A DNA stretch of 58,185 nucleotides from a bacterium (GTDB lineage Bacteria; Krumholzibacteriota; Krumholzibacteriia; LZORAL124-64-63), in assembly GCA_043823125.1 (NCBI GenBank), contig JBDRBC010000479.1:1-58185 (forward strand), written 5' to 3'. The notes under the pieces were generated by a model, which searched no databases, was not told where the DNA came from, and was given only the letters and a program-made list of their open reading frames with translations. Positions 13,665 through 57,446 of this stretch are shown here, piece after piece (position 1 is the first letter of the stretch; each line of letters opens with the position of its first letter). Both the position numbers and the translations under genes were made by a program.

Positions 13665-13676
13665 CGATTTCTTGCT

Positions 13677-38167: not shown

Positions 38168-39358
38168 TCACGGAATGATCCCTCTGGTCCGCAAACTCGC
38201 GATATCGTGCTCCCCAAGCCCCACTTCCTGCAGCAACGACACCGTGTGCTCGCTGTACTTCGGAGCGAAGGAGAACTCGGTCACCCCATCTTCCCGATCG
38301 ACAGCCGGCGGCGGCAGGTGGATCACCTTGCCGTTCGGCGTGCGGGTGGTGGTCAACTTGGGCGCGATGGCCGCCAGATCCCGCACCTGCTGGATCGTGT
38401 GAATGGGAGCGTGGGGAATCTTGGCGGCGGCCAGCTCGGCTTGTAGCTCGACTGAGTCGCACCGGGCGCAAATCGCCGCCAGTTCCGTGTGGATGGCTTC
38501 CCGCTCCTGATGCCGGCCGTCGTTGGTGCGACGGAGCGGTCGATCCAGAGCCCGACACCTGGGCAGATCCACCAGCCGCTGCCACTGCACATCGTTGCCG
38601 ATGGCGATGAAGATGAACCCGTCCCGGGTGGGATAGGCGTTCACCGGGATGAACTTGCGGTGCTCGTTCCCGCAACGCCCCACCTCGGCGGGAGCGCAGT
38701 CGAAATCGAGTAGCGGCAGGGTCGTGGTGAGCCACGAGGCCGCCGCCTGCAGCATGGAGACGTGGATCGCCTGCCCGACGCCAGTCTCCGTCCGCTCCGC
38801 CAGAGCGAGACAGACGTTGGCATATACCTCGTCGCCGGCCTTGAAATCGACAATCGGTATTCCGGCCAAGGTGGGCGGGCCGTCCGCGGCCCCGGTGACC
38901 TCCATGTACCCCGCCATGGCTTGCAGGGCGGGATCGTATCCCGGCGTGTGCGGGTAATCCGGTCCCATGGCCGAGATGCCCGCCCAGATGAGGTCCGGCT
39001 TGACACTCCTGAGCGTGGCGTAATCGATGCCCAGCGCCTCGTAACGGGCGGGCAGGGTATTGCAGCAGAAGATATCCACATCCAGCTCGGTGATGAGCCG
39101 CTGCAGGAGTTCCCTGCCCGCGGCTTCCTGCAGATTGAGGGCGATGGCTTCCTTCCCCACGTTGGGGGCGATGAAGTACGACCGCCTGTCGTCGTCCACC
39201 ACCTGTTCACCGATGTAGCGGTTGGGATCGCCCGGGAGCGTCTGGCCCCGGGGCGTGGCCTCGAGCCTGATCACGCGCCACCCGAGCTGGGCGAAACGTT
39301 GGGTGGCGTGGCTCAGCGACAGCGCCTGCTCCATGGAGATCACGGTTTGTGGTCTCAT
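38168..39358 (-). CDS. family III CoA-transferase (CaiB/BaiF/Frc-like)
   Basis: ATG at 39358 overlaps the upstream stop (ATGA). [33 protein letters not shown] resembles the family III N-terminal fold. The size (396 aa) and central ...[12 protein letters not shown]... also fit. Confidence 0.7.
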
Positions 39359-41664
39359 GCCTGGCCTTCCCGGTTTTTCCGGTTTTCCAACAAGGCGCGC
39401 AGCACGTATTCCGGGGTCAGCGGCAGCTTGTTGAACCACACGCCGGTGGCGTTGTGGAGCGCGTTGGCGATGGCCGGCGCGGTGGGGATCATGGGTGACT
39501 CGCCGATTCCCTTGGCGCCGGCGGGGCCCTCGGGATCCATGGTCTCGATGAAAAACATCTCGATCTCCGGAATCTCGGGGGCGGTCAACACCTTGTAATC
39601 ACGGAAGCACGGATTCTGCATGATGCCCCGATCCAGCTGCAGGTTCTCGGTGGTGGCGTACCCGATGCCCATGATCACGCCCCCCTCCACCTGCCCCTCG
39701 ATGCCGATGGCGTTGATCACGCGGCCCACGTCGTGCGCAGCCACGACCTTGAGAATTCGAATAACCCCGGTCTCGGTATCCACCTCCAACTCCACGACCT
39801 GGGTGCCGAAGGCATAGGCGGCGGAGACATTGCCGTGGAAATCACGATCCTGGGCTTCACTGGGCGGCTCGTAATACTCCGTCGTCATGACCACTTCGTT
39901 CTTCTGGCCGAAGTGCAACGAACGGATGAGCTTCCCCAGATCCAATAGAACCTCGCCGCTCCGGGCGTCCACCACGGCGCCACGGTACAGATCCAGGTTC
40001 TTTGCCGATTGTTCCAGGCTGGCGGCGGCGGCGGCCAGGAGTTTGTCCCGCGCCTTCCGGGCGGCCCGGAGCGCTGAATTGCCGGCGATGAAGGTCGTCC
40101 GGCTGGCGTGAACACCCACATCCCAGGGACAGAGGTCGGTGTCGTTGTTGACGATCTTGATGGCCGTGATGGGCACGCCGAGCTGTTCGGCCACGAGCTG
40201 AGCGATGACCGTCTCGGAACCCTGTCCGATCTCGGAGGCGCCCGTCATCACCGTGACCTTGCCGAAATCGTCGATCTTCAGGATGGTGCCGCAGCCGTCG
40301 CTGTGGTAGATCTTCGCCCCTCCCCCCACGTGCAGCAACGAGGCGATGCCAACTCCCCGTTTGACCACTCCAGGCTGAGGCGACCGGTTCCGGGCCTGTT
40401 TCGTCACGAAGTCACTCTGCTCAGCGGCCGTCTCGAGGCATTCCCGCAGCCCGCAGCTGGTGAACTGCAGCCCCTGTCCCGTGGTCTCCCCCGGTCGCTG
40501 TGCGTTGAGCAGACGGAAGGCCAGCGGATCCATCGCCACCGCCTCGGCCCACCGGTCCATGTGCGACTCGACGGCGAAGGTCGCCTGGGGATTGCCGTAA
40601 CCACGAAAGGCGCCGCTGTACGGGTTGTTGGTATACACCACCTTGGTGTGGTACTTGCAGTGCTCCACGCGGTACAGCGAGGAGACCGTCTGCATCATCA
40701 CGAACGGCGTCGTCGCTCCCCAGGAGGTGTAGCCGCCGTTGTCGTGCAGGGTGGTCGCCTCGCGGAAGGTCAACGTGCCGTCCCGGCGCACGCCACTGCG
40801 CAGGGTGAACTCCACCGGCTGGCGAGTCGGCGAGGCGATGAACTCCTCCTCACGCGTGAAGAGCAGCCGCACCGGCCGGCGGGTGGCCCGGGCCAGGAAG
40901 ATGCAGATCGGCTCGAAGGGATAGATATCCAGCTTGCTGCCGAAACCGCCGCCCAGTGGCGGCTGGACGACGCGGATCTTCTCCGGGGGAACGTCGATCA
41001 CCGCGGCGATGTCCTTCTTGTACAGAAACGGCACCTGGGTCAGGGAGTGGACGGTCAGTTCGCCCTGGGGATCGAAGGCCGCCAGGCAGCCGCTGACGCC
41101 GAGGCAGCAGTGCGTGACGAAGTGCAGCGAGAACGTGTCCTCGATGATGAGGTCGGATTCCTGCTCACCGGTGGCGATGTCCCCGTGGCTGTAATCGTAC
41201 TCGTGGAGGATGTTGTCGGGATGCCGTTCGTGAATGATCGGCGCACCTTCGCGTAACGCGGCGGCCGGCGAGAATACCCCTGGTAGATCCTCGTACTCCA
41301 CCCGGATCGCCGCGACGGCGGCGGTGGCGATCGCCTCGGTATCCGCGGCGACGGCCGCGACCTCGTCTCCGTAACGACGGACCTTGTCGCCCTTGAGCGG
41401 CGGATTGTCCCTGAAATGGCCGAGCGGCACCCCGGGCGTGTCCGCCGCCGTGATCACCGCGCGCACACCGGGTAGAGCCCGGGCGGCACTGGTATCGATG
41501 TTTATGATGCGAGCATGGACCCGGTCGCTCCGCAGGATCTTGCCGTGCAACATGCCGGGCAGCTTCAGGTCCTGCAAGTAACGCACCTCGCCGGTGGTCT
41601 TCTGCGGCGCGTCGAGCTTGGTGATACGCTGGCCGATGAGTGTTTCCTTGTGAAACCCGGTCAT
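39355..41664 (-). CDS. xanthine dehydrogenase-family molybdopterin-binding large subunit
   Basis: ATG at 41664 (ATGA overlap) gives [46 protein letters not shown]. Contains [10 protein letters not shown] and a C-terminal GAKGIGESP. Confidence 0.9.
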
Positions 41665-42167
41665 GGTTCCTCGGTACTCTCGTTGTTCGCGGCGTCCCTG
41701 GTCTTGTGCACGGCACTGGCGATCGCCTCGATGACCTTGCCGTATCCCGTACAGCGACAGAGGTTGCCCTCGATCCCGCGTTTGATCTCCGTCACGGTCA
41801 GGTCGCGGTTCTGGTGCAACAGGTGGATTCCCTGCACGATCATGCCCGAAGTGCAGAAGCCGCACTGGACAGCCCCCTTGGCGACGAACTCCTGCTGCAA
41901 GATGTTCAGACCTTCCTCGGTGAGCAGCCCTTCGATGGTGGTCACTTCCCGCCCGTCACAGTCCACGGCGAACATGAGACAGGAATTCTGCGAGATCCCG
42001 TCCACCAGGATCGTACAGGCGCCGCACTCGCCCTCGCCGCAGCCGAGCTTGGTTCCGGTCAGATCGAACAGTTCACGCAACATGGTGAGACTGTCCATCT
42101 GGAGCGGGACGTCCACCGCCACCGTCTGGCCGTTGAGTCGGAAGCTAATATGCTGTTTGCAAGACAT
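41661..42167 (-). CDS. (2Fe-2S)-binding small subunit of the Mo hydroxylase
   Basis: 168 aa with GCGEGECGACT (plant-type cluster) and CGFCTSGM / CRCTGY (second cluster). Confidence 0.9.
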   Translation of the reverse strand: MSCKQHISFRLNGQTVAVDVPLQMDSLTMLRELFDLTGTKLGCGEGECGACTILVDGISQNSCLMFAVDCDGREVTTIEGLLTEEGLNILQQEFVAKGAVQCGFCTSGMIVQGIHLLHQNRDLTVTEIKRGIEGNLCRCTGYGKVIEAIASAVHKTRDAANNESTEEP

Positions 42168-43017
42168 GACGGAGCACTCTTCCTGTCAGGATCCGGATCA
42201 TCTCCCGCCGATACCACGCCGTGGCGCGGACATCGGTGATGGGAGACACCTCCTCGGCGGCCAGGCGACCTGCCTGACCGATGAACTGCTCGGAATAGAC
42301 CTGTCCCTCGATGAAGGCTTCGGTCTGGCGGCCGCGGAGCGGCGTGGGCGCCACGGCGCCGAAAGCGACACGCACCTGGTGCAGCGACCCGTTCTGCCGG
42401 GTACCGGCAATCCCCACGGACACGATGGAGATGTCGAGGGCGGGCCGGGCGCCGAACTTCTCGAAATACGCCACCCGTTCGGGGGGCGGCAGCGCGAAGG
42501 TGGCGGCCAGCAGGATTTCAGTCGCCGCCAGCCTGGTCTGTCCGGGACCGACGAAAAAATCACTCAGGGGGAGTGAACTTCTGACCACCGCACCGTCCAC
42601 CCAGCTGGCCAGTTCCAGTTCGGCATCCAGCAGCAGCAGAGGGATGATCAGATCGCCGGCCGGCGAGGCGTTGCAGATGTTGCCGCCGATGGTGGCGCTG
42701 TTGCGCACCTGATCGCTGGCAAAGCAGTCCGCGGTCTCCGGCAGGATCGCGGCGGCCTGCCGCAAGGTCCGATCACGCAGGATCTCGGTCACCGTGGTGA
42801 GCGCGCCGATCCGGATCCGCTGGTCAACGGTGGTTATGCCCCGCAGTTCGGGAATCTTGCGCAGGTTGACCAGCAGCGGCGCCGTCGCCATCCCACCCGT
42901 CCGGGTCCTCGGCATCAGATCCGTGCCGCCGGCCAGCAGGGTGGCGTCGTGTTCGGCGAGCAGCCGCACGGCCTCGGCGAGATCGGTTGGGATGACGTAT
43001 TTCTCGATCGTGCTCAT
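42145..43017 (-). CDS. FAD-binding medium subunit of the Mo hydroxylase (CoxM/XdhB-like)
   Basis: ATG at 43017 gives MSTIEKYVIPTDLAEAVRLLAEHDATLLAGGTDLM. About 290 aa, with TIGGNICNASPAGD. No cysteine-rich insertion. Confidence 0.85.
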   Translation of the reverse strand: MSTIEKYVIPTDLAEAVRLLAEHDATLLAGGTDLMPRTRTGGMATAPLLVNLRKIPELRGITTVDQRIRIGALTTVTEILRDRTLRQAAAILPETADCFASDQVRNSATIGGNICNASPAGDLIIPLLLLDAELELASWVDGAVVRSSLPLSDFFVGPGQTRLAATEILLAATFALPPPERVAYFEKFGARPALDISIVSVGIAGTRQNGSLHQVRVAFGAVAPTPLRGRQTEAFIEGQVYSEQFIGQAGRLAAEEVSPITDVRATAWYRREMIRILTGRVLRHVLQTAY

Positions 43018-43095: not shown

Positions 43096-44706
43096 CTAGA
43101 ACCGAACCGGCTCCTTGAAAGTGCCGAACACCTCCACCAGGCAACGAGTGATTTCGCCGACGGTAGCGTACGCCTGCACTGCCGCGATGATGGCGGGCAT
43201 GACGTTGTCTTCCGTTCGGGCGACCTCCGTCACTTTCTTCAATGCTGCAGCCACCCGGGCAGCGTCCCGCTCATTGCGTTTCCGATCGAGTCGGTCGAGC
43301 TGATGGCGGCAGTTGTTTGCCTCGAACTGGTGATACTCGATGCTGAGTTCCTCTTCCTCAATCCGGTAACAGTTCACGCCTACCTTGCGCCTCTCGCCGT
43401 TCTGGACAGCCACGAGATCTGCCTTGGCCTGACGGGAAACCGCGGCCTGTATCTGGCCCTCGGCGATGGCCTTGACGATGCCGCCCTGGCTGTCGACCTC
43501 CACCATCACCGCGCGGATCTTCTGCTCCATCTGATTCGTCAGCGTCTCCACGTAATAGGAGCCACCCAGCGGATCCACCGTATCACAGAGTCCCATCTCC
43601 TCGATGAGGATCTGCATGGTGCGCAAGGAGATCCGCGCCGCTTTTTCGGTGGGAATCGTGAACGCCTCGTCGTAGGAGCACAACGCCATGGTCTGGGTGC
43701 CGGACAGGGCGCTGATCAGGGCATAATAGGCGCTACGCACGATGTTGTTCTCCGGTTGCTCGATGGTCAAGCCCCCACCCCCGCCACCAGCTATCATGCG
43801 CATCCACATGGACTTGGAGTTCTGCGCTGCATATTCCTCTTTAATGATCCGCGCCCAGAGCCGACGGCCCGCCCGGAACTTGGCCACCTGCTCGAACAGG
43901 TTGCCATGAATGTCGAAGTTGAACGACAACCGCGAGGCAAAGCTGTCGATGTCCAGCCCCCGCTCGAGCACCAGATCGATGTAGGCCTTGGCGATGCAGA
44001 AGGCGTAGGCCATCTCCTGTACCGGGTTCGCACCGGACTCCCGGATGTGGTATCCGCAGACGCTGACCGGGCTGTAGAGCGGAGCATTCTCGGCGCAGTA
44101 GGCGATGGTGTCCCCCACCAACCGCATCGACGGCTCCACCGGAAAGATCCAGGTTCCCCGACCGACGAACTCCTTCAAGATGTCGTTCTGGGCCGTGCCT
44201 CTCAGTCTGCTCAGGTCGTAACCCCGCTTTTCCGCCAGGGCGAGATACATGGCGATCAGGACGGCAGCGGCGCCGTTGATCGTCAGTGATACGGTGATCT
44301 TCTCCAGATCGATCCCGGCGAAGGCGATCTCTAAATCCTCCAGCGTATCCACCGCCATGCCCACCCGACCCACTTCACCGGCGGCGAGTTCGGCATCGGA
44401 ATCCAGACCCACCTGGGTCGGCAGATCGAAAGCCACATTCAGACCGGTCTGTCCATTCTCGATCAGATAGTGGAATCGCCCGTTCGTTTCCTCGGGCGTA
44501 CCGAAACCCGCGTACTGCCGCATGGTGTAGGGACGCTGGCGGTACATGTACTGGTGGATCCCGCGGGTGAAGGGAAAGACACCCGGGTTACCCACCGGGT
44601 CTTCACCACCGCTGGCGGCCAGATCGTCGGCCGTGTAGACCGGTTTGATCTCGATGCCCGATTCATTGAATACCGGCGGCAGATCCATTTTCTGAGGACT
44701 ACTCAT
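43096..44706 (-). CDS. B12-dependent acyl-CoA mutase, large (substrate-binding) subunit
   Basis: 536 aa. GVFPFTRGIHQYMYRQRPYTMRQYAGFGTPEETNGRFHYL...GLNVAFDLPTQ is the methylmalonyl-CoA-mutase-family TIM-barrel signature. Confidence 0.9.
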   Translation of the reverse strand: MSSPQKMDLPPVFNESGIEIKPVYTADDLAASGGEDPVGNPGVFPFTRGIHQYMYRQRPYTMRQYAGFGTPEETNGRFHYLIENGQTGLNVAFDLPTQVGLDSDAELAAGEVGRVGMAVDTLEDLEIAFAGIDLEKITVSLTINGAAAVLIAMYLALAEKRGYDLSRLRGTAQNDILKEFVGRGTWIFPVEPSMRLVGDTIAYCAENAPLYSPVSVCGYHIRESGANPVQEMAYAFCIAKAYIDLVLERGLDIDSFASRLSFNFDIHGNLFEQVAKFRAGRRLWARIIKEEYAAQNSKSMWMRMIAGGGGGGLTIEQPENNIVRSAYYALISALSGTQTMALCSYDEAFTIPTEKAARISLRTMQILIEEMGLCDTVDPLGGSYYVETLTNQMEQKIRAVMVEVDSQGGIVKAIAEGQIQAAVSRQAKADLVAVQNGERRKVGVNCYRIEEEELSIEYHQFEANNCRHQLDRLDRKRNERDAARVAAALKKVTEVARTEDNVMPAIIAAVQAYATVGEITRCLVEVFGTFKEPVRF

Positions 44707-45098
44707 GTCACTCTCTCGTTGATGAAATCCACGATTGACTGCAGCGGGGTACCGAAAGGAAACACCCCGTGCACCCCGAGTTCTGTCAGCTCAGCCAGGT
44801 CGGCCCGGGGAATGCTGCCGCCGACGATCCACAACTTGTCAGCGAGGCCATAGTCGGGCAGCAACTCCTTGAGTTTACGGCACAACGGCAGGTGGGACCC
44901 GGAAAGGATGGACAGTCCGATCACGTCGACATCCTCGTCACGGGCGGCGGCCGCGATCTCGGCGGCGGATTTGCGCAGTCCCGTGTAGATGACGTCGAAG
45001 CCCGCCTCCAGCAACGTACGTACCACGATCTTGGCGCCCACGTCGTGGCCGTCCAGGCCCGGTTTGGCCACCAGGATCTTGATCTTCCGCTGATTCAT
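44703..45098 (-). CDS. acyl-CoA mutase small subunit, cobalamin-binding domain
   Basis: 131 aa. KILVAKPGLDGHDVGAKIVVRTLLEAGFDVIYTG contains the DxHxxG base-off B12 motif. ATGA overlap with the large subunit. Confidence 0.9.
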   Translation of the reverse strand: MNQRKIKILVAKPGLDGHDVGAKIVVRTLLEAGFDVIYTGLRKSAAEIAAAARDEDVDVIGLSILSGSHLPLCRKLKELLPDYGLADKLWIVGGSIPRADLAELTELGVHGVFPFGTPLQSIVDFINERVT

Positions 45099-46297
45099 CA
45101 GTCGGCTTCTTTCCCTAGAATGGTCACGGCGGCGATGGCCCCGGGGCCGCCGATGTTGTGCGCGAGTCCCAGGCGGGCGCCGGAGATCTGACGGTCGCCG
45201 GCACTCCCGCGCAGATGTTCACAGATCTCGTGGACCATACGGATTCCGGTGGCCCCCACGGGATGACCGCACGACAGCAGGCCGCCGCTCACGTTGACGG
45301 GGATGTCGCCGTCTCGTCGCGTGGCGCCGGACCGCACCAGTTCCTTGGCTTCGCCCTGCTGGCAAAAACCGAGATCCTCGTAGGTCAACAGCTCGACGAT
45401 GGAAAAACAGTCGTGCACTTCCGCCAGATCGATCTGAGCGGCGGGATCGTCGATACCGGCCTGCCGGTACGCCTTCTTCGCGGCGACCCTAGCCGCCTGG
45501 AACGAGAGCAGATCGTAGGACTCATCGAAGAACGGCAGGTCCCAGCCCGTCGAAACGGACAGTCCCAGACCCTTGAGATAGACCGGGGTTCCGGCGTACT
45601 TCCCGGCATCCTCGGCGCGGACCAGGATCACCGCCGCGGCGCCGTCGGTGGTGGGACAGGAATCCATCACCGTCAACGGATCCGCCACCAGCGGCGAGTG
45701 GAGCGCCTGCTCGAGCGTGATCTCCCGCCGGTAATGGGCGCGTGGGTTGAGACAGGCGTGGGCGTGATTCTTCACCGAGATGGCTGCCAGATCCTCCCGG
45801 GTCACGCCGTACTTCTCGAAGTGCCGGCTCGCGTACATGGCGAAGGTGCCGGCGGCGGTGAATCCCTTCTGATAAAACGGGTGCCCCATCTCCACCATCA
45901 GCTTGACGATGCTGTCCTGCGGCGAACGGTCGCGCAGCTTTTCCACGCCCAGGGCTAGGGCCACGTTGCTCTCGCCGGCCAGCAACGAGTTCACGGCGCC
46001 GCGCACGGCCTCGGCGGCGGTGGCGCAGTAGTTCGAGACCCGGGTGATCGGGATATGGAACAGGCCGAGCGGCTCGGCCAGATCCATGCCGGCCCGCCCC
46101 TTGTAGACCCCGGCGTCGGGAAAGGCGGTGCCCAGCCAGGCGGCGTCGATCTGTCGTCGGGAAACGCCGGCATCCGCCAAGGCGTCGTGAGCCGCCGCGG
46201 CCACGAGGTCCTCGTAGCTCAGATGAAAGTGCTCGCCGAACTCGGTGCAACCGATGCCGACGATACAGACCAGGTCCTTGAAATCGTTACCCGGCAT
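45098..46297 (-). CDS. thiolase (SCP-x / archaeal-type, pairs with a DUF35 partner)
   Basis: ATG at 46297 gives MPGNDFKDLVCIVGIGCTEFGEH. Nucleophile region VSNYCATAAEAV; C-terminal VNVSGGLLSCGHPVGATG and LAHNIGGPG. Confidence 0.85.
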   Translation of the reverse strand: MPGNDFKDLVCIVGIGCTEFGEHFHLSYEDLVAAAAHDALADAGVSRRQIDAAWLGTAFPDAGVYKGRAGMDLAEPLGLFHIPITRVSNYCATAAEAVRGAVNSLLAGESNVALALGVEKLRDRSPQDSIVKLMVEMGHPFYQKGFTAAGTFAMYASRHFEKYGVTREDLAAISVKNHAHACLNPRAHYRREITLEQALHSPLVADPLTVMDSCPTTDGAAAVILVRAEDAGKYAGTPVYLKGLGLSVSTGWDLPFFDESYDLLSFQAARVAAKKAYRQAGIDDPAAQIDLAEVHDCFSIVELLTYEDLGFCQQGEAKELVRSGATRRDGDIPVNVSGGLLSCGHPVGATGIRMVHEICEHLRGSAGDRQISGARLGLAHNIGGPGAIAAVTILGKEAD

Positions 46298-49335: not shown

Positions 49336-51062
49336 CGGTTCCTCAACTGGTTGGTGGTTTTCGGGTCGAGTTCGTGGGTCGCGGCATCGACGGCAACCCC
49401 GTACAGCTCACGGGCGGCGGCGGCGGAGATGATCCCGTTTTTCACCTCGGCGGCGACGAGCTCCGCCGGACGTTTCCTGGCATCGCCATACCCGCCGCCA
49501 CCGCCGGCAAGCTGGCGGTACACCGTTCCCCTGGGGATCCCGGTGATGATGTCGAGGCTCAGAGTGGGGTTGACCGTGCCGTCGGCATACTGGAGCTTGA
49601 CCGAATTCAAGGTCCCGTCACCACCCCCGTGCAAGCCAAAAGCCGGCTCCACATCACCGTCGCCGAACACCACCAGCTGGGTATCGTCGGCGCCGAACTC
49701 GAAGATGGTCTCGACCCCGAGTCCCCCCCGCCACTGCCCGCAACCGGCGGAGTCACAGAGGTATTCGTGCTTGTGGAGCAGGTGCGGAGTCTGCTGTTCG
49801 AACATCTCGTAATCCTGATCGAGCAAGCCCCCGGAAGCGTCGATCATGCCGATGTGATCGTAACCGTCGACCCCCTGCATGGCCCCGGAACCGCCTTTCA
49901 ATCCCATGAAGCAGATGTCCACGTACTTGTCCTGCTTGCGGGGATCCAGGCCGGTGGTCAACGAGCACAGCAGGTGATTCCAGCCGGCGGTGACGCGCTC
50001 GGGAATCGCGGCTTCCAGAGCGCGAGAGATCGCATCCGCATTGGCTGGACAGAGGTGGTTGCCGTAGGTGGTGGCGGCCGGGTAGGCGGCATTCAGAATG
50101 GTGCCTTCGGGAATGATGATCTCGATCGGCTGCACCATACCCTGGTTGTGCGGAATATCCGGGTTGACCATCTGCAGGAAGGTCAAGGTGGTGGCCGAGG
50201 CGCTGGAGGTGTAGGTGCCGTTGACGAAGGCATCGGATTGCGGGTCGGTCCGCGAGTAGTCGAATCGGATGCGCCTGTCCGCCACGGTGATCTCCACCCG
50301 TATGGTGTACTGCCGACCGTGGTTCTTGCCGTCGTAGTAGATGATCGCCTCCCCGTGGTACACCCCGTTGGGAATGGCGGCGATCTCGGCTTCCATCATC
50401 CTGCTGGTGGCGGCGAACAGTGCTTCCTTGTGGCGCTCGAAGCAGGCGACTCCGTACTTCTCCAGCAGCTGGAGCAGGCGTCTTTCGCCCACGACACAGG
50501 AACCGATCTCGGCGCGCATGTCCTCCGCCACGATATCGAAGCGAATGTTGGCGAAGATGAGATCCCACACGTCCTGGCGGAGTTTCCCCCGCTCGTACAC
50601 CTTCACCGGCGGGATCCGCAACGCTTCCTGCCAGACCTCGGTCGCGTTGGGATTGTACCCGCCCGCAACGGCACCGCCGATGTCCGCCTGGTGCCCCTTG
50701 CAGGCCGACCAGGCCACGAGCTTGTCCGCGTGGAAAATCGGCTTGTAGACCGCGACATCGTTATTCTGGTTGCCCATGCTGAAGACGTCGTTGTGAAAGA
50801 TGACATCACCGGGATGGATGTCTTCACCGAAATAGTCGCAGATGTACTTGCAGACCGGACCGAGGGAAAAGGACAGAATGGGCAGGTTCTCGGTCTGTTC
50901 TAGCATGTTGCCCCGGGCATCGTACAGGCCGGTCACGAAGTCCTTGGCCTCGCACAGAATCGGTGACCGGGTGGTCTTCTGCAGCGAGATGCTCATTTCG
51001 TCCGTGACGGACTTGAACGCTCGCGCGAACACCGACAGCAGAATGGGATCGACATCGGGCAT
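49332..51062 (-). CDS. hyuB: hydantoinase B / oxoprolinase-family protein
   Basis: ATG at 51062, after GGAGG, gives MPDVDPILLSVFARAFKSVTDEMSISLQKTTRSPILCEAKDFVTGLYD, the typical HyuB N-terminus. 576 aa. Confidence 0.9.
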   Translation of the reverse strand: MPDVDPILLSVFARAFKSVTDEMSISLQKTTRSPILCEAKDFVTGLYDARGNMLEQTENLPILSFSLGPVCKYICDYFGEDIHPGDVIFHNDVFSMGNQNNDVAVYKPIFHADKLVAWSACKGHQADIGGAVAGGYNPNATEVWQEALRIPPVKVYERGKLRQDVWDLIFANIRFDIVAEDMRAEIGSCVVGERRLLQLLEKYGVACFERHKEALFAATSRMMEAEIAAIPNGVYHGEAIIYYDGKNHGRQYTIRVEITVADRRIRFDYSRTDPQSDAFVNGTYTSSASATTLTFLQMVNPDIPHNQGMVQPIEIIIPEGTILNAAYPAATTYGNHLCPANADAISRALEAAIPERVTAGWNHLLCSLTTGLDPRKQDKYVDICFMGLKGGSGAMQGVDGYDHIGMIDASGGLLDQDYEMFEQQTPHLLHKHEYLCDSAGCGQWRGGLGVETIFEFGADDTQLVVFGDGDVEPAFGLHGGGDGTLNSVKLQYADGTVNPTLSLDIITGIPRGTVYRQLAGGGGGYGDARKRPAELVAAEVKNGIISAAAARELYGVAVDAATHELDPKTTNQLRNR

Positions 51063-51066
51063 CTCG

Positions 51067-53181
51067 TCACCTCCCCCCGGTCGTGGCCGCTCCGGCGACC
51101 AGATCTTCCCGCCCCCTGAGGTGGACGGCGAAGGAACCGCTGGCATCGCAGAGACAGTCGAAGGCCGAACTCAGGAACAACGTCGTGTTGGTCTGTTCGA
51201 TGATGGCCGGACCCGCGATCCGAAAACCGAAACGGATCCGGTGACCGTCGTAAACCGGGACGGTCTCGAAGGATGAGGATTCGGGCAGATAGACCGCCCG
51301 GTTCCCTTTCCGGGCCACGGCGGGATCGTGGCCCGCGTACTCCTCGGCTTCGTAGGTCGGCTTCTCGATGACACCGACCGCCCGCAAGCGCACGTTGATC
51401 AACTCGACCGGCGTACCTTCCCGTTCGAGGGAGTAACCATACAACCGGTTGTGTTCGTGGTGGAACGCGTTCACGATCTGATCGAGATCGGCCTGGGCCA
51501 CCGCCGACCTGGGCAGCGGGAACGAGACCTCGTGATACTGCTTGACGTAGCGGCAATCCAGGTGCAGCTGGAACTCCCGGTTTTCCCGGGGGACCTTCTC
51601 CTCCGCCAGCAGCCGCTCGCCTTCTGCGATCAACTCGTTGACGACCGCCTGGAGCCGGGACCAGTCGATCCGCTCGAGCACCGTGACGAACGAGCGGACA
51701 AAATCGTGTCGCAGATCACTCATGAGCATGCCCGCCGCGCAGAAGATCGACGATTCCCGCGGCACGACGAACATGGGGATCTCCAGCTCCTGGCAGATGG
51801 GACAGGCGTGCAGCGGACCGGCCCCACCGGCAACCACCATCAGAAACTCGCGCGGATCGTAACCACGCTTGATGGTGATTTCACGAACCCCTTGCGCCAT
51901 GTTGGTATTGATCACCTGGTACATGCCCGCCGCCGCCGCCGTCGTGGACAAGCTGAGCGGGTCGGCGATGAAACGGTCGATGGCGGCGCTGGCGGCGCCC
52001 GTTTCGAGCGCGATCTTGCCGCCGGCGAAGTACTCGGGATCGAGGTACCCCAGAACCAGATCCGCGTCGGTGCAGGTCGGTCGGGTGCCACCCTTGCCGT
52101 AGCAGGCAGGCCCCGGATCGGCACCGGCACTCTGCGGTCCCATCCGCAACAATCCCCCTTCATCGATCCAGCCGATACTGCCGCCGCCAGCGCCGATGGT
52201 CACGATGCCCAGCATCGGCAAGGCGATCCGATATCGATTGATCTCTCCCTCGGTCGCCACGATGGGATTGCCATCGCGAACCAGGGCGGCGTCGAAACTG
52301 GTGCCGCCCATGTCGACGGTGATGCAGTCCTCGCGCCCATGGACGCGGGCGTAGGACAACCCGGCGCCAGGACCGGCCGCCGGTCCGGAGAGCAACGTCA
52401 AGGCGGCCCCCCGACGCGCCACCTCGGGCGCCATAACCCCACCATTCGACTGCATGATCAGCAGGATGCCTCGAAAACCGATCTCGCGCAGACGGTCACG
52501 CAGGCTGTCCATGTAGAGACCGAGTTGCGGCCCGACGTACGAGTTCAAAACCGTGGTGCTGAGCCGATCGTAGAATCGGATCGAGGGCAGGAGTTCCGAG
52601 GACACCGTCAGGTAGGCGTCGGGCAACTGTTCTCGCACCTGCGCCGCCGCTTGCTGCTCGTGCTCCTGATTGGCGAAGGAGTTCATGAAGCAGATGGCGA
52701 CCGCTGCGACCTGCTCTTCACGAAAATAATCGATGGCTCGCTGGACATCGTCTTGATTTAGCGGATCAACCGGGTCGCCTCGATAATCCAGGCGGCCCCG
52801 GATCGGCAGTCGGAGGTACCGTGGCACCAGGGGAGGAACGTTGGTGTAGCGGTTGTTGTACTGCTCCTCGCGGATACCCCGGCGCATCTCCAGCGCATCG
52901 CGCACCCCGGCAGTGGTCAGCAATCCCGTCTTGGCCCCGGTCATGGTCAAGGCGGCGTTGGTGGTCACGGTGGTACCGTGGACGATCGTCTCGATGGAGG
53001 TCGCCAATTCCGTCAGGGAGAGTCCCAGAAACGTCGCGATCTCGGTCAGCCCATCGATCAGGCCGATGGCCGGATCCTGGGGCGTGGAGAGCACCTTGAA
53101 GACCAGCGGCTCCGAGTCGTCCTGCGTGACCAGGAAGTCGGTGAAAGTCCCCCCGACGTCTGTACCGATTTTCAGAGGCAT
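51067..53181 (-). CDS. hyuA: hydantoinase A / oxoprolinase-family protein (ATP-dependent, ASKHA fold)
   Basis: ATG at 53181 gives MPLKIGTDVGGTFTDFLV. 704 aa, with a second ASKHA block ITVDMGGTSFDAALV. The 911-aa track ORF is an upstream read-through of the same frame. Confidence 0.9.
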   Translation of the reverse strand: MPLKIGTDVGGTFTDFLVTQDDSEPLVFKVLSTPQDPAIGLIDGLTEIATFLGLSLTELATSIETIVHGTTVTTNAALTMTGAKTGLLTTAGVRDALEMRRGIREEQYNNRYTNVPPLVPRYLRLPIRGRLDYRGDPVDPLNQDDVQRAIDYFREEQVAAVAICFMNSFANQEHEQQAAAQVREQLPDAYLTVSSELLPSIRFYDRLSTTVLNSYVGPQLGLYMDSLRDRLREIGFRGILLIMQSNGGVMAPEVARRGAALTLLSGPAAGPGAGLSYARVHGREDCITVDMGGTSFDAALVRDGNPIVATEGEINRYRIALPMLGIVTIGAGGGSIGWIDEGGLLRMGPQSAGADPGPACYGKGGTRPTCTDADLVLGYLDPEYFAGGKIALETGAASAAIDRFIADPLSLSTTAAAAGMYQVINTNMAQGVREITIKRGYDPREFLMVVAGGAGPLHACPICQELEIPMFVVPRESSIFCAAGMLMSDLRHDFVRSFVTVLERIDWSRLQAVVNELIAEGERLLAEEKVPRENREFQLHLDCRYVKQYHEVSFPLPRSAVAQADLDQIVNAFHHEHNRLYGYSLEREGTPVELINVRLRAVGVIEKPTYEAEEYAGHDPAVARKGNRAVYLPESSSFETVPVYDGHRIRFGFRIAGPAIIEQTNTTLFLSSAFDCLCDASGSFAVHLRGREDLVAGAATTGGR

Positions 53182-53864
53182 GACTTTATCTCGATCTGAT
53201 CGAGCGCTTCGCCGAAGACGACTCCGCTGCGAAAGGCCCGCTGGTTCAGTTCCGCCAGCTGGGGCGGAACGGTTTTCATGGTCGTATCCAGAAAATCCTG
53301 CGCGGCGTAGGGCAACAGGCCGCTGCCGAAGAGACACCCCAGCATGACCACATTGAGGGTCTGGATCGCCCCCGCTTCCTTGGCCAGCGCGGTGGCATCC
53401 ACCGTCACCAGGAAAGCCGTGACCGCACGAATTGTCTCGAACAGTTGCGGCACACTCGGATACTCGGTCGGACCGTCTTCGAACACGAAGTTCTGCGCCA
53501 GAATGAAGGGAAAAACCGGTATCGGGTTCATGAAAACGACGGTTTTGGTGGTGATATACGGCAAGGCCCGAACCGTTTCGATCGGCTCGAGTCCGAGCAC
53601 GAAATCGGCGCCGCACCGTCCGAGGACCGGGCTGATGCCGCTGTCGATGGTGACCAGGGATTGCACCGCCCCGCCCCGCTGTGCCATGCCGTGGAGCTGG
53701 CTGCTCATGACCTGGTGTCCACGCGAGACGAAAAAATCCGTCAACAGGCGCGCCGAGGTGATCACACCCTGGCCACCGGTGCCGGCAACCACAATACGGC
53801 ACCCGGTTCGTTCCGGAGAAACCTGCTCAGTACTGGACACTTTCACCCACCTGTCGGATGGCAT
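53172..53864 (-). CDS. iorB: indolepyruvate:ferredoxin oxidoreductase beta subunit (start uncertain: ATG 53864, GTG 53846 or 53840)
   Basis: RIVVAGTGGQGVITSARLL...QLHGMAQRGGAVQS is the pyruvate/ketoisovalerate oxidoreductase gamma-type domain typical of IorB. 10-nt overlap with the hyuA start. Confidence 0.8.
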   Translation of the reverse strand: MPSDRWVKVSSTEQVSPERTGCRIVVAGTGGQGVITSARLLTDFFVSRGHQVMSSQLHGMAQRGGAVQSLVTIDSGISPVLGRCGADFVLGLEPIETVRALPYITTKTVVFMNPIPVFPFILAQNFVFEDGPTEYPSVPQLFETIRAVTAFLVTVDATALAKEAGAIQTLNVVMLGCLFGSGLLPYAAQDFLDTTMKTVPPQLAELNQRAFRSGVVFGEALDQIEIKSCL

Positions 53865-55713
53865 CCTTGTTACACACCTGGGCACACAGTCCGCACCCGT
53901 CGCAGTTTTTCTGATCGATGGCGTACTCGCCGTCAGCCACGAAGATGCTGGGACACCCCAGCAAACGCACACACAACGAGCATTCGTCGCAGAGTTCCGG
54001 TTCGATGCGGAACGGGGCCTGTTCCTCCGCACTACCGAGTCGGCGTTGATAAACCCGACACGGCGAGTTGAAGATAACCACGTTGGGGCCGGTGGCGTCG
54101 CGAGCCTGTTTGAGTTGCTCTCGGGCTGACTCCAGCTCGTATGGGTCCAGCACGTGGATGTCGGTGACACCGAGTCCGCGGACGGCTTGTGCCAGAGGAT
54201 CATCCGTTCCGGCCGCCGGAGAAGCAGTCGGCGCCGACTCGACAGCGATAACCGCCGACATCGGGCTGGGCTGGAAACCGGTCATGGCGGTGACGTAATT
54301 GTTCAGGATGCACACGGTCACCGGATCGTTGTTCTGAACAGCGTTGGCCAGCGCCGGCAGACCGCTGTGATAGAAGGTCGAATCGCCGATGTAAGCCACC
54401 GTCCGCTGACCGGTCACCCTGGCGAAACCGGCCGCCATGCTGATACTCGCCCCCATGCAGAGCAACAGATCACAGGAATGAAGCGGTGTCCCGTACCCGA
54501 GGGTGTAACAACCGATATCGTTCACGTAGACGGTCTGCTTGCCAAAGACCCGGCGCATCAGATAGAAGCTCGCCCGATGGGGACAGCCCGGACAGAGAAC
54601 CGGTGGGCGGGCCGGCAGATCGGGCACTTCCGGGGTGGCGACCACGGACGGTCCCAGCTGCAGATATTGACGGATGGCATCCTCGACCAGGTTGGGACTG
54701 TACTCGAACTCCAGCGGGAAGTGCCCGCTATGTTTGCCGTAAATAGGAATCGTCAACCCAGCCCGGTACGCTGACAGGGTGACCGTCTCCTCGACAAAGG
54801 GAGTCAACTCCTCCACCACCAGCACCGATTCGACACTGGACAAGAAATCGCGGAGAACTCTTTCGGGAACGGGATACGCACCGATCTGGAGCAGGGATAC
54901 CCGGTCGCCGACCCCGAGTTCATCGATGACCTGTGACGTATAGGCCCAGGCCACACCACTGGCGATGAGGCCGAGTTTGCCCGTCCCCCGCCGCGGGAAA
55001 AAATCCGATCCCGCCAGGAGCGATTGCGCCAAGGCGAACCGTTTGCTGAGATCCAGACGGAGACTCCGCACATTGGCCGGGATGGGCACCCGCCGGCCAA
55101 AATCCTTGGTGAGGAGAATTTCGTTTCTCTGGGCGGGAATCGATCCGAGTTCGACCATACCACTGACATGGCACACCCGGGTTGTCGGCCGCATCAGCAC
55201 CGGTAACCGGGTCTGTTCAGAAAACGCGAAGGCGAAGCGTGTCATGCGCAAGGCATCGGCGGGAGTAGCGGGATCGAAGATCGGATAGAAGAGAAAACGG
55301 GAGAATTGTCGTTGGTCCTGTTCGTTGGGACTCGTGATGGCCGAAGGATCTCCGGCCGTCACGATCACCAGACCGCCATCGACGCCCACATAAGGCATCG
55401 AAGCCGCCGGATCGCCGGCGTAGTTGAATCCGAGATGTTTCATGCCGCACATGGACCGGGCACCGGTCAAACTCGCCGCGAAGGCGATCTCGAGGGCGTT
55501 TTTCTCGTTGATCGAATACTCGAAAATAATGTCCGTTTCCGCGGCGATGCGGGCAAATGTGTCACCCACCTCGGAAGACGGTGTGCCGGGATAACACGAG
55601 TAGAACTGTACCCCGGCCTCAAGCGCTCCCCGGACAATGGCGTGATTGCCGAGCAAACAGGTTACCGTTCCTGCATCACCCCGCAGGACTTCAGGTCGTG
55701 CTGAACCGCTCAT
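53827..55713 (-). CDS. iorA: indolepyruvate:ferredoxin oxidoreductase alpha subunit
   Basis: 628 aa. N-terminal LLGNHAIVRGALEAGVQFYSCYPGTPSSEV, a TPP motif GDSTFYHSG...NN, and two C-terminal ferredoxin motifs (CDECSLCVRLLGCP, CDGCGLCAQVC). Confidence 0.85.
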   Translation of the reverse strand: MSGSARPEVLRGDAGTVTCLLGNHAIVRGALEAGVQFYSCYPGTPSSEVGDTFARIAAETDIIFEYSINEKNALEIAFAASLTGARSMCGMKHLGFNYAGDPAASMPYVGVDGGLVIVTAGDPSAITSPNEQDQRQFSRFLFYPIFDPATPADALRMTRFAFAFSEQTRLPVLMRPTTRVCHVSGMVELGSIPAQRNEILLTKDFGRRVPIPANVRSLRLDLSKRFALAQSLLAGSDFFPRRGTGKLGLIASGVAWAYTSQVIDELGVGDRVSLLQIGAYPVPERVLRDFLSSVESVLVVEELTPFVEETVTLSAYRAGLTIPIYGKHSGHFPLEFEYSPNLVEDAIRQYLQLGPSVVATPEVPDLPARPPVLCPGCPHRASFYLMRRVFGKQTVYVNDIGCYTLGYGTPLHSCDLLLCMGASISMAAGFARVTGQRTVAYIGDSTFYHSGLPALANAVQNNDPVTVCILNNYVTAMTGFQPSPMSAVIAVESAPTASPAAGTDDPLAQAVRGLGVTDIHVLDPYELESAREQLKQARDATGPNVVIFNSPCRVYQRRLGSAEEQAPFRIEPELCDECSLCVRLLGCPSIFVADGEYAIDQKNCDGCGLCAQVCNKDAIRQVGESVQY

Positions 55714-55961
55714 TGCCGATCTTTCGGGATTTGCAGAGGTGGGGAAAACTGCCGTAAGCAGATCCGCGTCGACTCATGGGGTGGCTCCGGTCCGAGAAGG
55801 ATAGAGGTCCACCCGGATGTCTGAATCGTCACGCGATTACCGTGATGTCGAGGCACAGTTGCATGGGGCCGCCGGTACGGATCTGTTGAGCATCCGGTCG
55901 CGCCCACCTGGTGACGTAGCGATTCAGCGATCCGAGTTATGGACAATCGCGAGCACGATCG

Positions 55962-55990
55962 ATCATATGGGCGAGGCAAATATTATTCAA
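55962..55990 (-). promoter_or_regulatory. candidate sigma70 promoter for the iorA operon (TTGAAT-N17-TATGAT)
   Basis: On the minus strand, TTGAAT (55990-55985), a 17-nt spacer, then TATGAT (55967-55962), in the only A/T-rich patch of the 362-nt tnaA-iorA gap. This implies a ~240-nt leader. Confidence 0.35.
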
Positions 55991-56075
55991 TTGCTAAGTT
56001 GCATCGAGTGGTCGGTGGCCCAGTCAGCCGCCGGCCCGTCCCCACCAAGCAGCAGGCGCAGGCATCCTCTGGGGG

Positions 56076-57446
56076 TCAGATCCACTCGAACCGTGCCGTG
56101 AAGTGACGCAGGAACGGCGGTGACTCGACGATTCGCATCCCCCGGATCGATTCCCGGCGTTTGAAGACCTGACCGATGGCCTCGATCACATAATCCATGT
56201 GGCTCTGGGTGTACGCGCGGCGGGGTATGGCCAGGCGAACGAGATCCATCTTGGCGGGACGTTCCTCCCCGGTCTCGGAATCGGCGCCGAACATGACCGT
56301 CCCGATCTCGACCGACCGGATACCAGCTTCGATGTAGAGTTCCACCGCGAGCACCCACCCCGGATAGCGCAAAGGATCGAGGTGTGACAGGAAACGCCGC
56401 GCATCGAGGTAGACAGCGTGGCCGCCGGCGGGCCGCAGGACCGGGATTCCCTGGGCGATGAGTGCCTCGACCATGTACTCGGTGACCCGGAGCCGGTACT
56501 GCAGGTAATCGTGGTCGAGAACCTCCTGCAAGCCGACTGCAACCGCTTCGAGATCCCGACCGGCGAGGCCCCCGTAGGTGGAATACCCTTCGGTGAGGAT
56601 CAACAGGTTACGCTCGTCCCGGGCCAGATCGTCGTCGTTGGTGCAGAGAAAACCGCCGATGTTGGCGAAAGCGTCCTTCTTGGCCGACATGGTGCAGCCG
56701 TCCGCATAGGAGAACAACTCCTGGACGATTTCCTTCACCGGTTTATCCGCATAGCCTTCCTCGCGCAACTTGATGAAGTAAGCGTTTTCGGCGAAGCGGC
56801 AAGCGTCGATGTAGAACGGCAGACCGTACCGGTGCGCCAGTTCGCTGGTGGCGCGGATATTGGCCATGGAGACCGGCTGCCCACCGGCCGAGTTGTTCGT
56901 GATGGTCAGCATGATCAGGGGAATCTGCTCGGGGCCGGTCTGTTTGATGAGGTTTTCGAGTGCCTCGAGATCCACGTTGCCCTTGAACGGGGCCACCAAT
57001 TCCGGGTCCCGGCTCTCGATACACGGCAGGTCGATGGCCTTGCCCCGAAGATACTCGATGTTGGCCCGAGTGGTATCGAAGTGGGTGTTGTTCGGCACGG
57101 TCATACCGGGCTGGACCATGACGCCGAACAGGATCCGCTCGGCCGCGCGTCCCTGATGGGTCGGGATGACGTGCTTGAAGCCGAAGATATCCTTGATCAC
57201 GGATTCGAATCGATACCAGCTCCGGGCGCCGGCGTACGACTCGTCGCCCCGCATGATACCCGCCCAGCCTTCGGAAGACATGGCGCTGGTGCCGGAGTCG
57301 GTCAGCAGGTCGATGATCACATCCTCGGCCTTGAGCAGGAATGGATTGTAGCCCGCCGCCTGGATTTTCTGCTCGCGCTCGCTCCGGGTGGTGAAGGTGA
57401 TGGGCTCTATCGATTTGATCTTGAACGGCTCAATGATCGTCTTCAT
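56076..57446 (-). CDS. tnaA: beta-eliminating lyase, tryptophanase-like
   Basis: 456 aa. IIEPFKIKSIEP, DLLTDSGTSAMS, ITNNSAGGQPVSMAN, DACRFAENAYFIK, MSAKKDA (PLP lysine region) and RLAIPRRAYTQSHMDYVIEA. At discriminating blocks it is closer to my memory of TnaA (SNSAGGQP, ARFAENAYFIK, MSAKKDA) than to tyrosine phenol-lyase. Confidence 0.85.
   Translation of the reverse strand: MKTIIEPFKIKSIEPITFTTRSEREQKIQAAGYNPFLLKAEDVIIDLLTDSGTSAMSSEGWAGIMRGDESYAGARSWYRFESVIKDIFGFKHVIPTHQGRAAERILFGVMVQPGMTVPNNTHFDTTRANIEYLRGKAIDLPCIESRDPELVAPFKGNVDLEALENLIKQTGPEQIPLIMLTITNNSAGGQPVSMANIRATSELAHRYGLPFYIDACRFAENAYFIKLREEGYADKPVKEIVQELFSYADGCTMSAKKDAFANIGGFLCTNDDDLARDERNLLILTEGYSTYGGLAGRDLEAVAVGLQEVLDHDYLQYRLRVTEYMVEALIAQGIPVLRPAGGHAVYLDARRFLSHLDPLRYPGWVLAVELYIEAGIRSVEIGTVMFGADSETGEERPAKMDLVRLAIPRRAYTQSHMDYVIEAIGQVFKRRESIRGMRIVESPPFLRHFTARFEWI

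Follow-up and report, generated by a model that had tools for sequence, protein, structure and literature searches.

The 58,185-nt stretch of DNA analyzed here (hereafter the window; contig JBDRBC010000479.1 of assembly GCA_043823125.1, assigned to the Krumholzibacteriota) carries an operon of 14 minus-strand genes, running from iorA (starting at 55713) to a family III coenzyme A (CoA)-transferase gene (ending at 38168), as seen in the open reading frame (ORF) listing and in Pfam and NCBIfam scans. By sequence, the core of this operon is a clear ortholog of the anaerobic breakdown pathway for indoleacetate (auxin), encoded by the iaa genes. Very probably, the locus is an iaa operon entered through indolepyruvate:ferredoxin oxidoreductase (IOR), which would convert tryptophan-derived indole-3-pyruvate into 2-aminobenzoyl-CoA without oxygen, as a peripheral pathway. 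The pathway family is already known; this locus is set apart by an exchange of its entry and thiolase modules and by a new accessory protein, in a variant of wide distribution. The biochemistry by which the indole ring is degraded without oxygen has been worked out only in outline, and only for auxin in a few denitrifying Betaproteobacteria. We found no description of an IOR-linked iaa cluster in the openly accessible literature, which covers the prior art only in part. The nine-enzyme core is spread over uncultured Acidobacteriota, Gemmatimonadota, Planctomycetota, Eisenbacteria/Krumholzibacteria-like, and other lineages, and, since it is wired to IOR, its natural feed is probably protein-derived tryptophan rather than plant auxin. 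The locus and its relatives also supply candidates for the thiolase step, for a new accessory protein and, in related loci, for an old yellow enzyme (OYE)-type flavoenzyme.

BLASTP against the CP141259 locus of Aromatoleum (Azoarcus) evansii pairs nine of the operon proteins, each as a reciprocal best hit, with IaaC, E, F, G, H, I, J, K, and L at 53–74% identity, and their genes lie in the same order in both genomes. The original prediction, made from the DNA letters alone, had named the enzyme classes and expected reciprocal similarity to the Aromatoleum proteins; Pfam and NCBIfam recovered every class at its position on the minus strand, and the reciprocal hits include both hydantoinase-type subunits (HyuAB) and the CoA-transferase. 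The predicted ATP-dependent lactam hydrolase comprises a hydantoinase A-type subunit (IaaC, 704 aa, 51067–53181, minus strand like all operon genes; 64% identical to A. evansii IaaC over 698 aa) and a hydantoinase B-type subunit (IaaE, 576 aa, 49332–51062; 74%). IaaF (376 aa, GTG start, 47711–48841; 68%) is a predicted decarboxylating (2-aminobenzyl)malonyl-CoA dehydrogenase. The mutase predicted to link (2-aminophenyl)succinyl-CoA and (2-aminobenzyl)malonyl-CoA consists of a small B12-binding subunit (IaaG, 131 aa, 44703–45098; 56%, with a Pfam B12-binding domain) and a large subunit (IaaH, 536 aa, 43096–44706; 69%). The putative indoleacetyl-CoA C2-hydroxylase is a molybdenum (Mo) enzyme with an FAD-binding medium subunit (IaaI, 42145–43017, its ORF extending to 43062; 53%, FAD_binding_5 and CO_deh_flav_C domains), a small subunit with two [2Fe-2S] clusters (IaaJ, 168 aa, 41661–42167; 57%, Fer2 and Fer2_2 domains), and a molybdopterin large subunit (IaaK, 769 aa, 39355–41664; 63% over 776 aa). 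The family III CoA-transferase (IaaL, 396 aa, 38168–39358; 66% over 397 aa, CoA_transf_3 domain) would act as an intramolecular (2-aminophenyl)succinyl-CoA transferase.

Individual residues agree with these assignments. IaaF, which has been characterized, defines a subclass of acyl-CoA dehydrogenases in which GGG replaces the catalytic YEG and which is confined to iaa operons (Schuhle et al. 2021, PMC8360864). The window protein carries this GGG (...TLYGGGTSEI, against ...TLIGGGTSEI in A. evansii IaaF), which is invariant in 17 orthologs; its C-terminus reads ...RFTLYGGGTSEI, against ...RFTLIGGGTSEI in A. evansii. A search with this dehydrogenase returned thousands of relatives, the best metagenomic matches being about 82% identical; proteins of Azoarcus sp. 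CIB, A. evansii, A. tolulyticum, and A. toluvorans are 68–69% identical, and several of these are named benzylmalonyl-CoA dehydrogenase by their sources. The large mutase subunit keeps the Tyr (MRQYAGFG) and Arg (KEFVGRGTW) of the methylmalonyl-CoA mutase type, and IaaH has the same two residues. The closest solved structure to this subunit, that of 2-hydroxyisobutyryl-CoA mutase, shows Ile and Gln in their place. In methylmalonyl-CoA mutase, the free carboxylate is bound by this Tyr and Arg. Both of these mutases were rejected as identities for the protein, given its 69% identity to IaaH, a score below the methylmalonyl-CoA mutase cutoff, and the lack of HcmA-type residues.

The Mo large subunit has as its nearest solved structure the alpha subunit of 4-hydroxybenzoyl-CoA reductase (1rm6), an enzyme of aromatic CoA thioesters. 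The window enzyme shares the three-subunit Mo/FeS/FAD architecture of this reductase (HcrCAB) and of the xanthine dehydrogenase (XDH) family; unlike HcrCAB, it has an FAD subunit that matches HcrB only partially, and its predicted reaction is a hydroxylation rather than a dehydroxylation. It falls under the cutoff of all NCBIfam XDH, HcrA, and CoxL equivalog models, and CO dehydrogenase and xanthine dehydrogenase were rejected on these scores and on the 63% identity to IaaK. The possibility raised with the original prediction, that the Mo subunit and the mutase might be of unrelated specificity, was thus not borne out, and with identities of 63–69% it is very unlikely that the Mo, mutase, or acyl-CoA dehydrogenase proteins would fall outside the Iaa clades. 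IaaC and IaaE share the two-subunit HyuA/HyuB organization of caprolactamase CapAB and 5-oxoprolinase, and their best NCBIfam models are CapA and CapB; they differ from CapAB in scoring far below its cutoffs, in their identity to IaaCE, and in being coupled to a small protein with a putative V4R-type fold (p164, below). For IaaC, the caprolactamase alpha model outscores acetophenone carboxylase. An acetone or acetophenone carboxylase made of HyuAB and the small protein was rejected, since the caprolactamase models score much above the Apc models and the identity to IaaCE is 64–74%.

The operon runs in the order iorA, iorB, iaaC, iaaE, p164, iaaF, a fusion of a 3-hydroxy-3-methylglutaryl-CoA synthase (HMGCS)-like domain with DUF35, a sterol carrier protein 2 (SCP2)-type thiolase, and iaaG, H, I, J, K, and L; relative to A. 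evansii, p164 is inserted after E and the thiolase pair after F. With start codons placed by homology, the 13 junctions from iorA to iaaL measure −38, −10, +4, −4 (ATGA), −1 (TAGTG), −4 (GTGA), −11, −1 (TGATG), −4, +78, −23, −4, and −4 nt, the +78 nt between iaaH and iaaI shrinking to +33 if an upstream GTG is the start. Because these junctions overlap or nearly abut, the genes from iorA to the CoA-transferase form a translationally coupled operon. A single operon had been foreseen in the original prediction, although its count of 13 genes missed either iorB (53172–53864) or the p164 gene (48841–49335). None of the 14 ORFs is interrupted, alignments of the nine core ORFs cover nearly the full length of their orthologs, and across 38168–57446 the minus-strand ORFs form an unbroken series with high G+C content at third codon positions. 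NCBIfam gave no equivalog-level name to any of the 14 proteins, and Rfam detected no RNA element in or near the operon.

The operon opens with the two IOR genes. IorA, the alpha subunit (628 aa, 53827–55713), carries the Pfam domains POR_N, TPP_enzyme_C, and Fer4, that is, thiamine pyrophosphate binding and two [4Fe-4S] clusters; IorB, the beta subunit (about 230 aa, 53172–53864), has a POR gamma-type domain, and its gene overlaps the end of iorA. Other IOR-type iaa loci encode, in this same place, IorA proteins that share 61–71% identity with the one in the window. The A. evansii locus (L001 in our set) is ordered GntR, iaaA thiolase, iaaB ligase, iaaC, E, F, G, H, I, J, K, L, and iaaM (binding protein), so that iorAB in the window occupies the slot that iaaB has in Aromatoleum. 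Indolepyruvate, the product of tryptophan, is on these sequences most likely the start of the pathway, rather than free auxin. In its nine orthologs, their order, the GGG of IaaF, and the Tyr/Arg of the mutase, the window resembles the Aromatoleum iaa operon (iaaABCDEFGHIJKLMPQR; A. aromaticum EbN1 and A. (Azoarcus) evansii KB740). It differs in having IorAB where Aromatoleum has the ligase IaaB, and an SCP2-type thiolase with the pseudo-HMGCS–DUF35 fusion where Aromatoleum has an IaaA-type thiolase. Of the two, only Aromatoleum has the hydratase/dehydrogenase IaaP, the regulators IaaQ and IaaR, and IaaM, and only the window has p164; the hosts are, respectively, a member of the Rhodocyclales and a deep-branching bacterium of the Fibrobacterota–Chlorobiota–Bacteroidota (FCB) group.

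The combination of enzymes, familiar to the original prediction only from Aromatoleum and Azoarcus, is not confined to them: an IaaF profile scan over one genome per GTDB species found an IaaF relative in at least 445 species genomes. We compared 88 related loci (the best 80, plus others added by exact protein look-up) using tblastn maps, and two architectures emerged. Forty-five loci are of the ligase type, mostly from Rhodocyclales, other Betaproteobacteria, and Alphaproteobacteria, and carry iaaA and iaaB, often with iaaP, iaaR, and iaaM. A further 14 are clearly of the IOR type, with IorAB directly before iaaC, and three more have a divergent or duplicated 2-oxoacid:ferredoxin oxidoreductase (at least 14–17 of the 88). 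Ligase and IaaP are missing from every IOR-type locus, as is IorAB from every ligase-type locus. The IOR-type loci come from metagenome-assembled genomes (MAGs) labeled Acidobacteriota, Gemmatimonadota, Planctomycetota/Phycisphaerae, Ca. Eisenbacteria, ‘Fibrobacteraceae’, Chromatiales, Gammaproteobacteria, and Myxococcales, and this variant is spread widely in uncultured bacterial phyla.

Two of these loci are particularly close to the window in layout or complementary to it. A metagenome contig (L086) has the window's exact 14-gene order, with 54–88% protein identity (88% for IaaE) and 77–80% nucleotide identity over 12.6 kb; its run of genes is interrupted by a BrnT/BrnA toxin-antitoxin pair, which lies between the mutase and the Mo-enzyme genes (15755–16311). 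In a Ca. Eisenbacteria locus (L087), the order is OYE, ferredoxin, glyoxalase, IorAB, CEFGHIJKL, and aminotransferase; the class I/II aminotransferase that ends this operon (18100–19329) provides for the tryptophan-to-indolepyruvate step, which the window lacks. Elsewhere, genes for a POT/PTR2 transporter or M24 Xaa-Pro aminopeptidases adjoin IOR-type loci (L011:594–2738, L012:17988–19550, and L009:12565–14049), which fits a diet of peptides and amino acids. In an Acidobacteriota locus (L089 = L008, positions 1–5576), a second, divergent IorAB pair and an IaaA-type thiolase precede the IOR-type operon, and a B12-binding radical SAM gene follows iaaL. Three loci whose IaaF is 79% identical to the window's (L003, L004, and L006) keep the genes from IorAB through the mutase and lack the Mo hydroxylase and CoA-transferase within 10 kb, so that the operon is split in this lineage.

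Between iaaF and iaaG, the window encodes a thiolase and its putative partner. The thiolase (399 aa, 45098–46297; Thiolase_N and Thiolase_C_1 domains) is of the SCP2/archaeal type and is predicted to act on 2-aminobenzoylacetyl-CoA. It keeps the nucleophilic Cys and the HDCF and GHPVGATG motifs, and its nearest solved structures are archaeal/SCP2 thiolases (7yvy, 6esq_A), with BbsB matching at 172 bits. It has no BLAST match to A. evansii IaaA, and the window holds no IaaA homolog. The adjoining gene (46287–47714) encodes a 475-aa protein in which a pseudo-HMGCS domain is fused to DUF35 (zinc ribbon and OB fold; ACP_syn_III(_C) and OB_ChsH2_C domains). A thiolase with a DUF35 partner had been proposed for this place; both the thiolase and the DUF35 domain are there, and the partner is this HMGCS/KAS-III-like fusion rather than a stand-alone DUF35 protein. 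The best solved relatives of the fusion are the HMGCS of the archaeal thiolase/HMGCS/DUF35 complex (6esq), PhlA, and DUF35 chains. Its Thr74, Leu106, and Tyr230 align with Glu82, Cys114, and His238 of 6esq_I, which, by the HMGCS motifs, we take to be the catalytic triad. At E ≤ 1e-30, an exhaustive search yielded 351 representatives; in the roughly 146 that are full-length fusions, no triad position is predominantly occupied by the catalytic residue. The zinc ribbon of DUF35 is kept (C363-x2-C366 and C377-x2-C380; PDB matches 6esq_E and ChsH2). As the triad is lost, we predict that the fusion is a scaffold for the thiolase and not a synthase; its absence also led us to reject an HMG-CoA synthase or mevalonate role.

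The same partnership of an SCP2-type thiolase with DUF35 is known from the benzoylsuccinyl-CoA thiolase BbsAB (7pxp), the archaeal acetoacetyl-CoA thiolase/HMGCS/DUF35 complex (6esq/6et9), and PhlACB (5m3k). An HMGCS-fold subunit is also present in two of these three assemblies, and PhlA, like the window fusion, lacks the catalytic triad. The window differs from all three in joining the HMGCS fold and DUF35 in one 475-aa chain and in its predicted substrate, 2-aminobenzoylacetyl-CoA. By analogy, the pair would parallel BbsAB and PhlACB, where the SCP2-type subunit does the chemistry. It occurs in a subset of the related loci (L003–L007, L010, L016, and L086).

The accessory protein, which we call p164 (162–164 aa, 48841–49335), is translationally coupled to iaaE and iaaF. 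Homologs form only 34 clusters in a set of 5.8 billion proteins, with H97, C100, H106, C119, and C153 invariant. An AlphaFold2 model (predicted local distance difference test score, 93.6) points to a V4R/Bet3/H-NOX-like fold, and Foldseek matched it to Bet3/TRAPPC3, H-NOX, and the phenol-sensor domains of PoxR, MopR, and DmpR, at template modeling scores of only 0.5–0.6. The Pfam family ATC_hydrolase (PF14196) matches weakly (21.5 bits against a cutoff of 28.1), and about half of the homologs have a precomputed PF14196 match. Among the loci compared, p164 is confined to those of the IOR type and to those with a truncated or unassigned front end (L009 and L026), and is found in none of the 45 ligase-type loci. 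We infer that it may help IaaCE in opening the lactam.

In the proposed pathway, an aminotransferase encoded elsewhere would convert tryptophan to indolepyruvate, and IorAB would turn indolepyruvate into indoleacetyl-CoA and reduced ferredoxin, an entry that needs no ATP-consuming IaaB ligase. The Mo hydroxylase IaaIJK would then introduce a water-derived hydroxyl at C2 of the pyrrole ring to give 2-oxoindoleacetyl-CoA, whose lactam IaaCE, possibly assisted by p164, would open at the expense of ATP to (2-aminophenyl)succinyl-CoA. IaaL would shift CoA to the other carboxyl group, the B12 mutase IaaGH would rearrange the product to (2-aminobenzyl)malonyl-CoA, and IaaF would oxidize and decarboxylate it to 2-aminocinnamoyl-CoA and CO2. 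After hydration and dehydrogenation by enzymes presumably encoded outside the locus, the scaffolded SCP2-type thiolase would cleave the 3-oxo intermediate into 2-aminobenzoyl-CoA and acetyl-CoA. The IaaL and IaaF steps draw on published enzymology of the Aromatoleum orthologs (PMC8360864), and the hydroxylase, lactam-opening, and mutase steps on the published proposal together with orthology; for the IorAB and thiolase steps and the role of p164, we relied on gene position, family membership, and co-occurrence. Since these operons have neither ligase nor thioesterase, the Mo hydroxylase and the lactamase would have to accept CoA esters, and a CoA-thioester entry of this kind lends independent genomic support to the CoA-ester version of the pathway. 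A route from tryptophan via indolepyruvate and indoleacetyl-CoA to aminobenzoyl-CoA was one of two put forward in the original prediction, and the orthology, the GGG motif, the mutase Tyr/Arg, and the conserved IorAB linkage argue for it.

Several points count against this pathway. IorA scores 643.3 bits with TIGR03336 (IOR_alpha) against a cutoff of 650.9, and the best families for IorB, the IOR_beta models, give 139.9 against 205.8, all below the NCBIfam cutoffs; moreover, IOR enzymes accept several arylpyruvates. Family membership of IorAB is clear, and we infer its substrate preference from sequence. The window has no aminotransferase, hydratase, dehydrogenase, electron transfer flavoprotein (ETF), regulator, or transporter assignable to the pathway, which is therefore incomplete as encoded. 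In L003, L004, and L006, the Mo enzyme and CoA-transferase genes are not adjacent to the operon. Finally, in an early study (Ebenau-Jehle 2012), Azoarcus extracts reportedly turned free indoleacetate (IAA) into 2-oxo-IAA, which bears on whether hydroxylation and ring opening proceed at the level of the CoA ester.

Upstream of iorA lies a gene for tryptophan indole-lyase (tnaA, 456 aa, 56076–57446, minus strand), with a Beta_elim_lyase domain and an NCBIfam PRK13238 score of 696 bits against a cutoff of 285. The protein aligns without gaps to tyrosine phenol-lyases and has D124, Y288, V379, I381, and H448 in their numbering. The two enzymes are separated by D137/F304/V394/I396/H463 in tryptophanase (E. 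coli) and T124/M288/M379/R381/F448 in tyrosine phenol-lyase (PMC5805759). Four of the five residues in the window protein are thus identical to tryptophanase and the fifth is aromatic, and the pyridoxal phosphate (PLP) lysine K257 is present. As its specificity residues are tryptophanase-type, we assign it as a tryptophanase and rejected a tyrosine phenol-lyase identity, although solved tyrosine phenol-lyases give it a slightly better score than tryptophanases do. Exactly 362 nt separate the tnaA stop from the iorA start, as the original prediction had it. This spacer (55714–56075) contains an AT-rich patch and one sigma70-like site (55990–55962), a single consensus match not above shuffle expectation; promoter and terminator scans likewise gave nothing above that level. 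We found no terminator-like site after tnaA, so there may be read-through into the operon; nevertheless, tnaA is probably a separate transcription unit. Linkage of these genes in related genomes had also been anticipated: it holds in many of them for IorAB and the core, whereas a tnaA homolog occurs within 10 kb of iaaF in none of the 88 related loci, so the tnaA linkage is lineage-specific. A 112-aa ORF upstream of tnaA (57608–57946) has no Pfam match. In a Chromatiales MAG (L088 = L010, positions 1350–2717), and in that genome only, the gene directly upstream of iorA encodes a free-standing TrpB2-like PLP enzyme, which scores 728 bits with NCBIfam PRK12391 (cutoff 366). Two different indole/tryptophan enzymes at the same position are suggestive, though these are two cases only.

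The tryptophanase underlies the second route of the original prediction, in which tryptophanase would release indole, the Mo enzyme would make oxindole, a hydantoinase-like enzyme would open the ring, and the remaining enzymes would process the product. The lyase is genuine and lies 362 nt away, and anaerobic indole degradation is known to begin with C2 hydroxylation to oxindole (PMC6221969). The chemistry, however, does not carry through: opening of oxindole yields 2-aminophenylacetate, which has no succinyl side chain, so that IaaL, IaaGH with its carboxylate-binding Tyr/Arg, and the decarboxylating IaaF with its GGG would be left without a substrate, on which ground we rejected the route. 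It also leaves IorAB without a role, finds tnaA in none of the 88 related loci, and has to explain core enzymes that are 53–74% identical to those of the IAA pathway; we hold it to be highly improbable. The tryptophanase might instead provide an additional input, by beta-replacement (indole with serine or cysteine giving tryptophan), so that environmental indole would pass via tryptophan and indolepyruvate into the iaa pathway. For this speaks the presence, in two unrelated genomes, of an indole/tryptophan-interconverting enzyme immediately upstream of iorA (TnaA in the window, the TrpB2-like enzyme in L010/L088); TrpB2 enzymes are not known to work in any but the synthetic direction. These are, however, only two of about 17 IOR-type loci, TnaA normally degrades tryptophan, a gap of 362 nt holding a promoter-like site points to separate control, and the adjacency may reflect shared tryptophan-responsive regulation or chance, which makes such an input unlikely. 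We give a similarly small chance to a broader proposal, in which the lineage-specific parts of the IOR-type operon, p164 (putatively binding zinc or iron) and the scaffolded thiolase, would replace the missing hydratase/dehydrogenase chemistry or stabilize cyclization-prone aminophenyl intermediates, and in which the TnaA and TrpB2 flanks would turn the module into a funnel that mineralizes free indole via tryptophan. If true, such a funnel would define, in genetic terms, an anaerobic route for indole that differs from the oxindole–isatin pathway.

A more conservative explanation takes the operon as a classical one for free indoleacetate, as in Aromatoleum, with the ligase encoded elsewhere and IorAB serving general aromatic amino acid fermentation or anabolism and clustered by chance. 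It would accommodate the orthology of the core to IAA-induced Aromatoleum genes, the broad arylpyruvate specificity of IOR, and scores slightly below the equivalog cutoffs. Chance clustering is difficult to reconcile with an IorAB that overlaps or abuts iaaC in the iaaB slot, with an IorAB–iaaC junction conserved across phyla, with cluster-linked IorA proteins 61–71% identical to one another, and with the fact that IorAB and the ligase never occur in the same locus; in L087, moreover, an aminotransferase is part of the operon. We regard this explanation as distinctly unlikely and the indolepyruvate-fed pathway as the better account.

Tryptophan-linked clusters have some precedent among strict anaerobes. 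Schuhle 2016 and Aklujkar 2014 reportedly dealt with predicted iaa operons of strict anaerobes and with a tryptophan-induced cluster in Ferroglobus placidus, which is reported to degrade tryptophan without oxygen, presumably by means of arylpyruvate oxidoreductases together with a cluster resembling iaa. The literature thus already contains predicted iaa operons for sulfate reducers and F. placidus (PMC8360864); like the window, the clusters of Desulfatiglans anilini, other sulfate reducers, and F. placidus are iaa-type loci outside the denitrifiers. They differ from the window in being reported with a dedicated non-bifurcating ETF paralogue (PMC8360864), of which the window has none.

The window's MnmA is at most 65% identical to any database protein, and because the named matches are Ca. 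Krumholzibacteria and Gemmatimonadales, we place the host, on this marker sequence, as a poorly sampled bacterium of the FCB group and not a proteobacterium, in keeping with the non-proteobacterial host first suspected. Across phyla, the Iaa proteins reach 88% (L086) and 74% (Aromatoleum) identity, against at most 65% for MnmA, which suggests that the operon has spread laterally. A resolvase gene at the left flank of the L086 contig hints at mobility.

As the original prediction had noted of ligase, MarR regulator, pathway transporter, enoyl-CoA hydratase, and hydroxyacyl-CoA dehydrogenase, none was found among the tested ORFs of the 58-kb window, nor were GntR or TetR regulators, a binding protein, or an ETF domain; an AMP-binding protein (ligase) was absent from both the operon and these ORFs. 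The regulators IaaQ and IaaR and the binding protein IaaM gave no tblastn match in the window and no corresponding Pfam domains near the operon, and no IaaP homolog was found in the window. The window is likewise without a flavoprotein that recurs beside both IOR-type and ligase-type iaa operons, a FadH/OYE-type Fe-S enzyme of about 650 aa (Oxidored_FMN and Pyr_redox_2 domains). It is encoded upstream of the operon in L086 (1054–3015), in L087 (872–2821), L040, and L044, and in the Rhodocyclales loci L022, L028, L031, L033, L041, and L049. Among NCBIfam models it matches mycofactocin OYE_2 and BaiCD best, without reaching either cutoff, and it could act on 2-aminocinnamoyl-CoA or 2-aminobenzoyl-CoA.

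The remainder of the window is housekeeping in character: MglA/B-like proteins, RecR, YbaB, DnaX, MnmA, MurB, ExbBD, TrkAH, tRNAs, and signal recognition particle (SRP) RNA. A Ras-like small GTPase gene adjoins one for a Roadblock/LC7 protein, as in an MglA/MglB-like polarity pair (605–1742). Two tRNA clusters lie at 4955–5479 and 13486–13763, one of them Ala-Ser-Ser beside the SRP RNA and the other Arg-Ser-Ser; this amounts to four tRNA-Ser genes in 9 kb, and a single tRNA-Glu is also present (34904–34978). Four large ORFs (750, 700, 434, and 450 aa; 8821–13166 and 18676–21323) have a strongly coding third-position G+C content; Pfam recognizes nothing in three of them and gives no more than a marginal Peptidase_S55 match for the 700-aa ORF. 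An M20 peptidase gene (33387–34787) lies 3.4 kb downstream of the operon.

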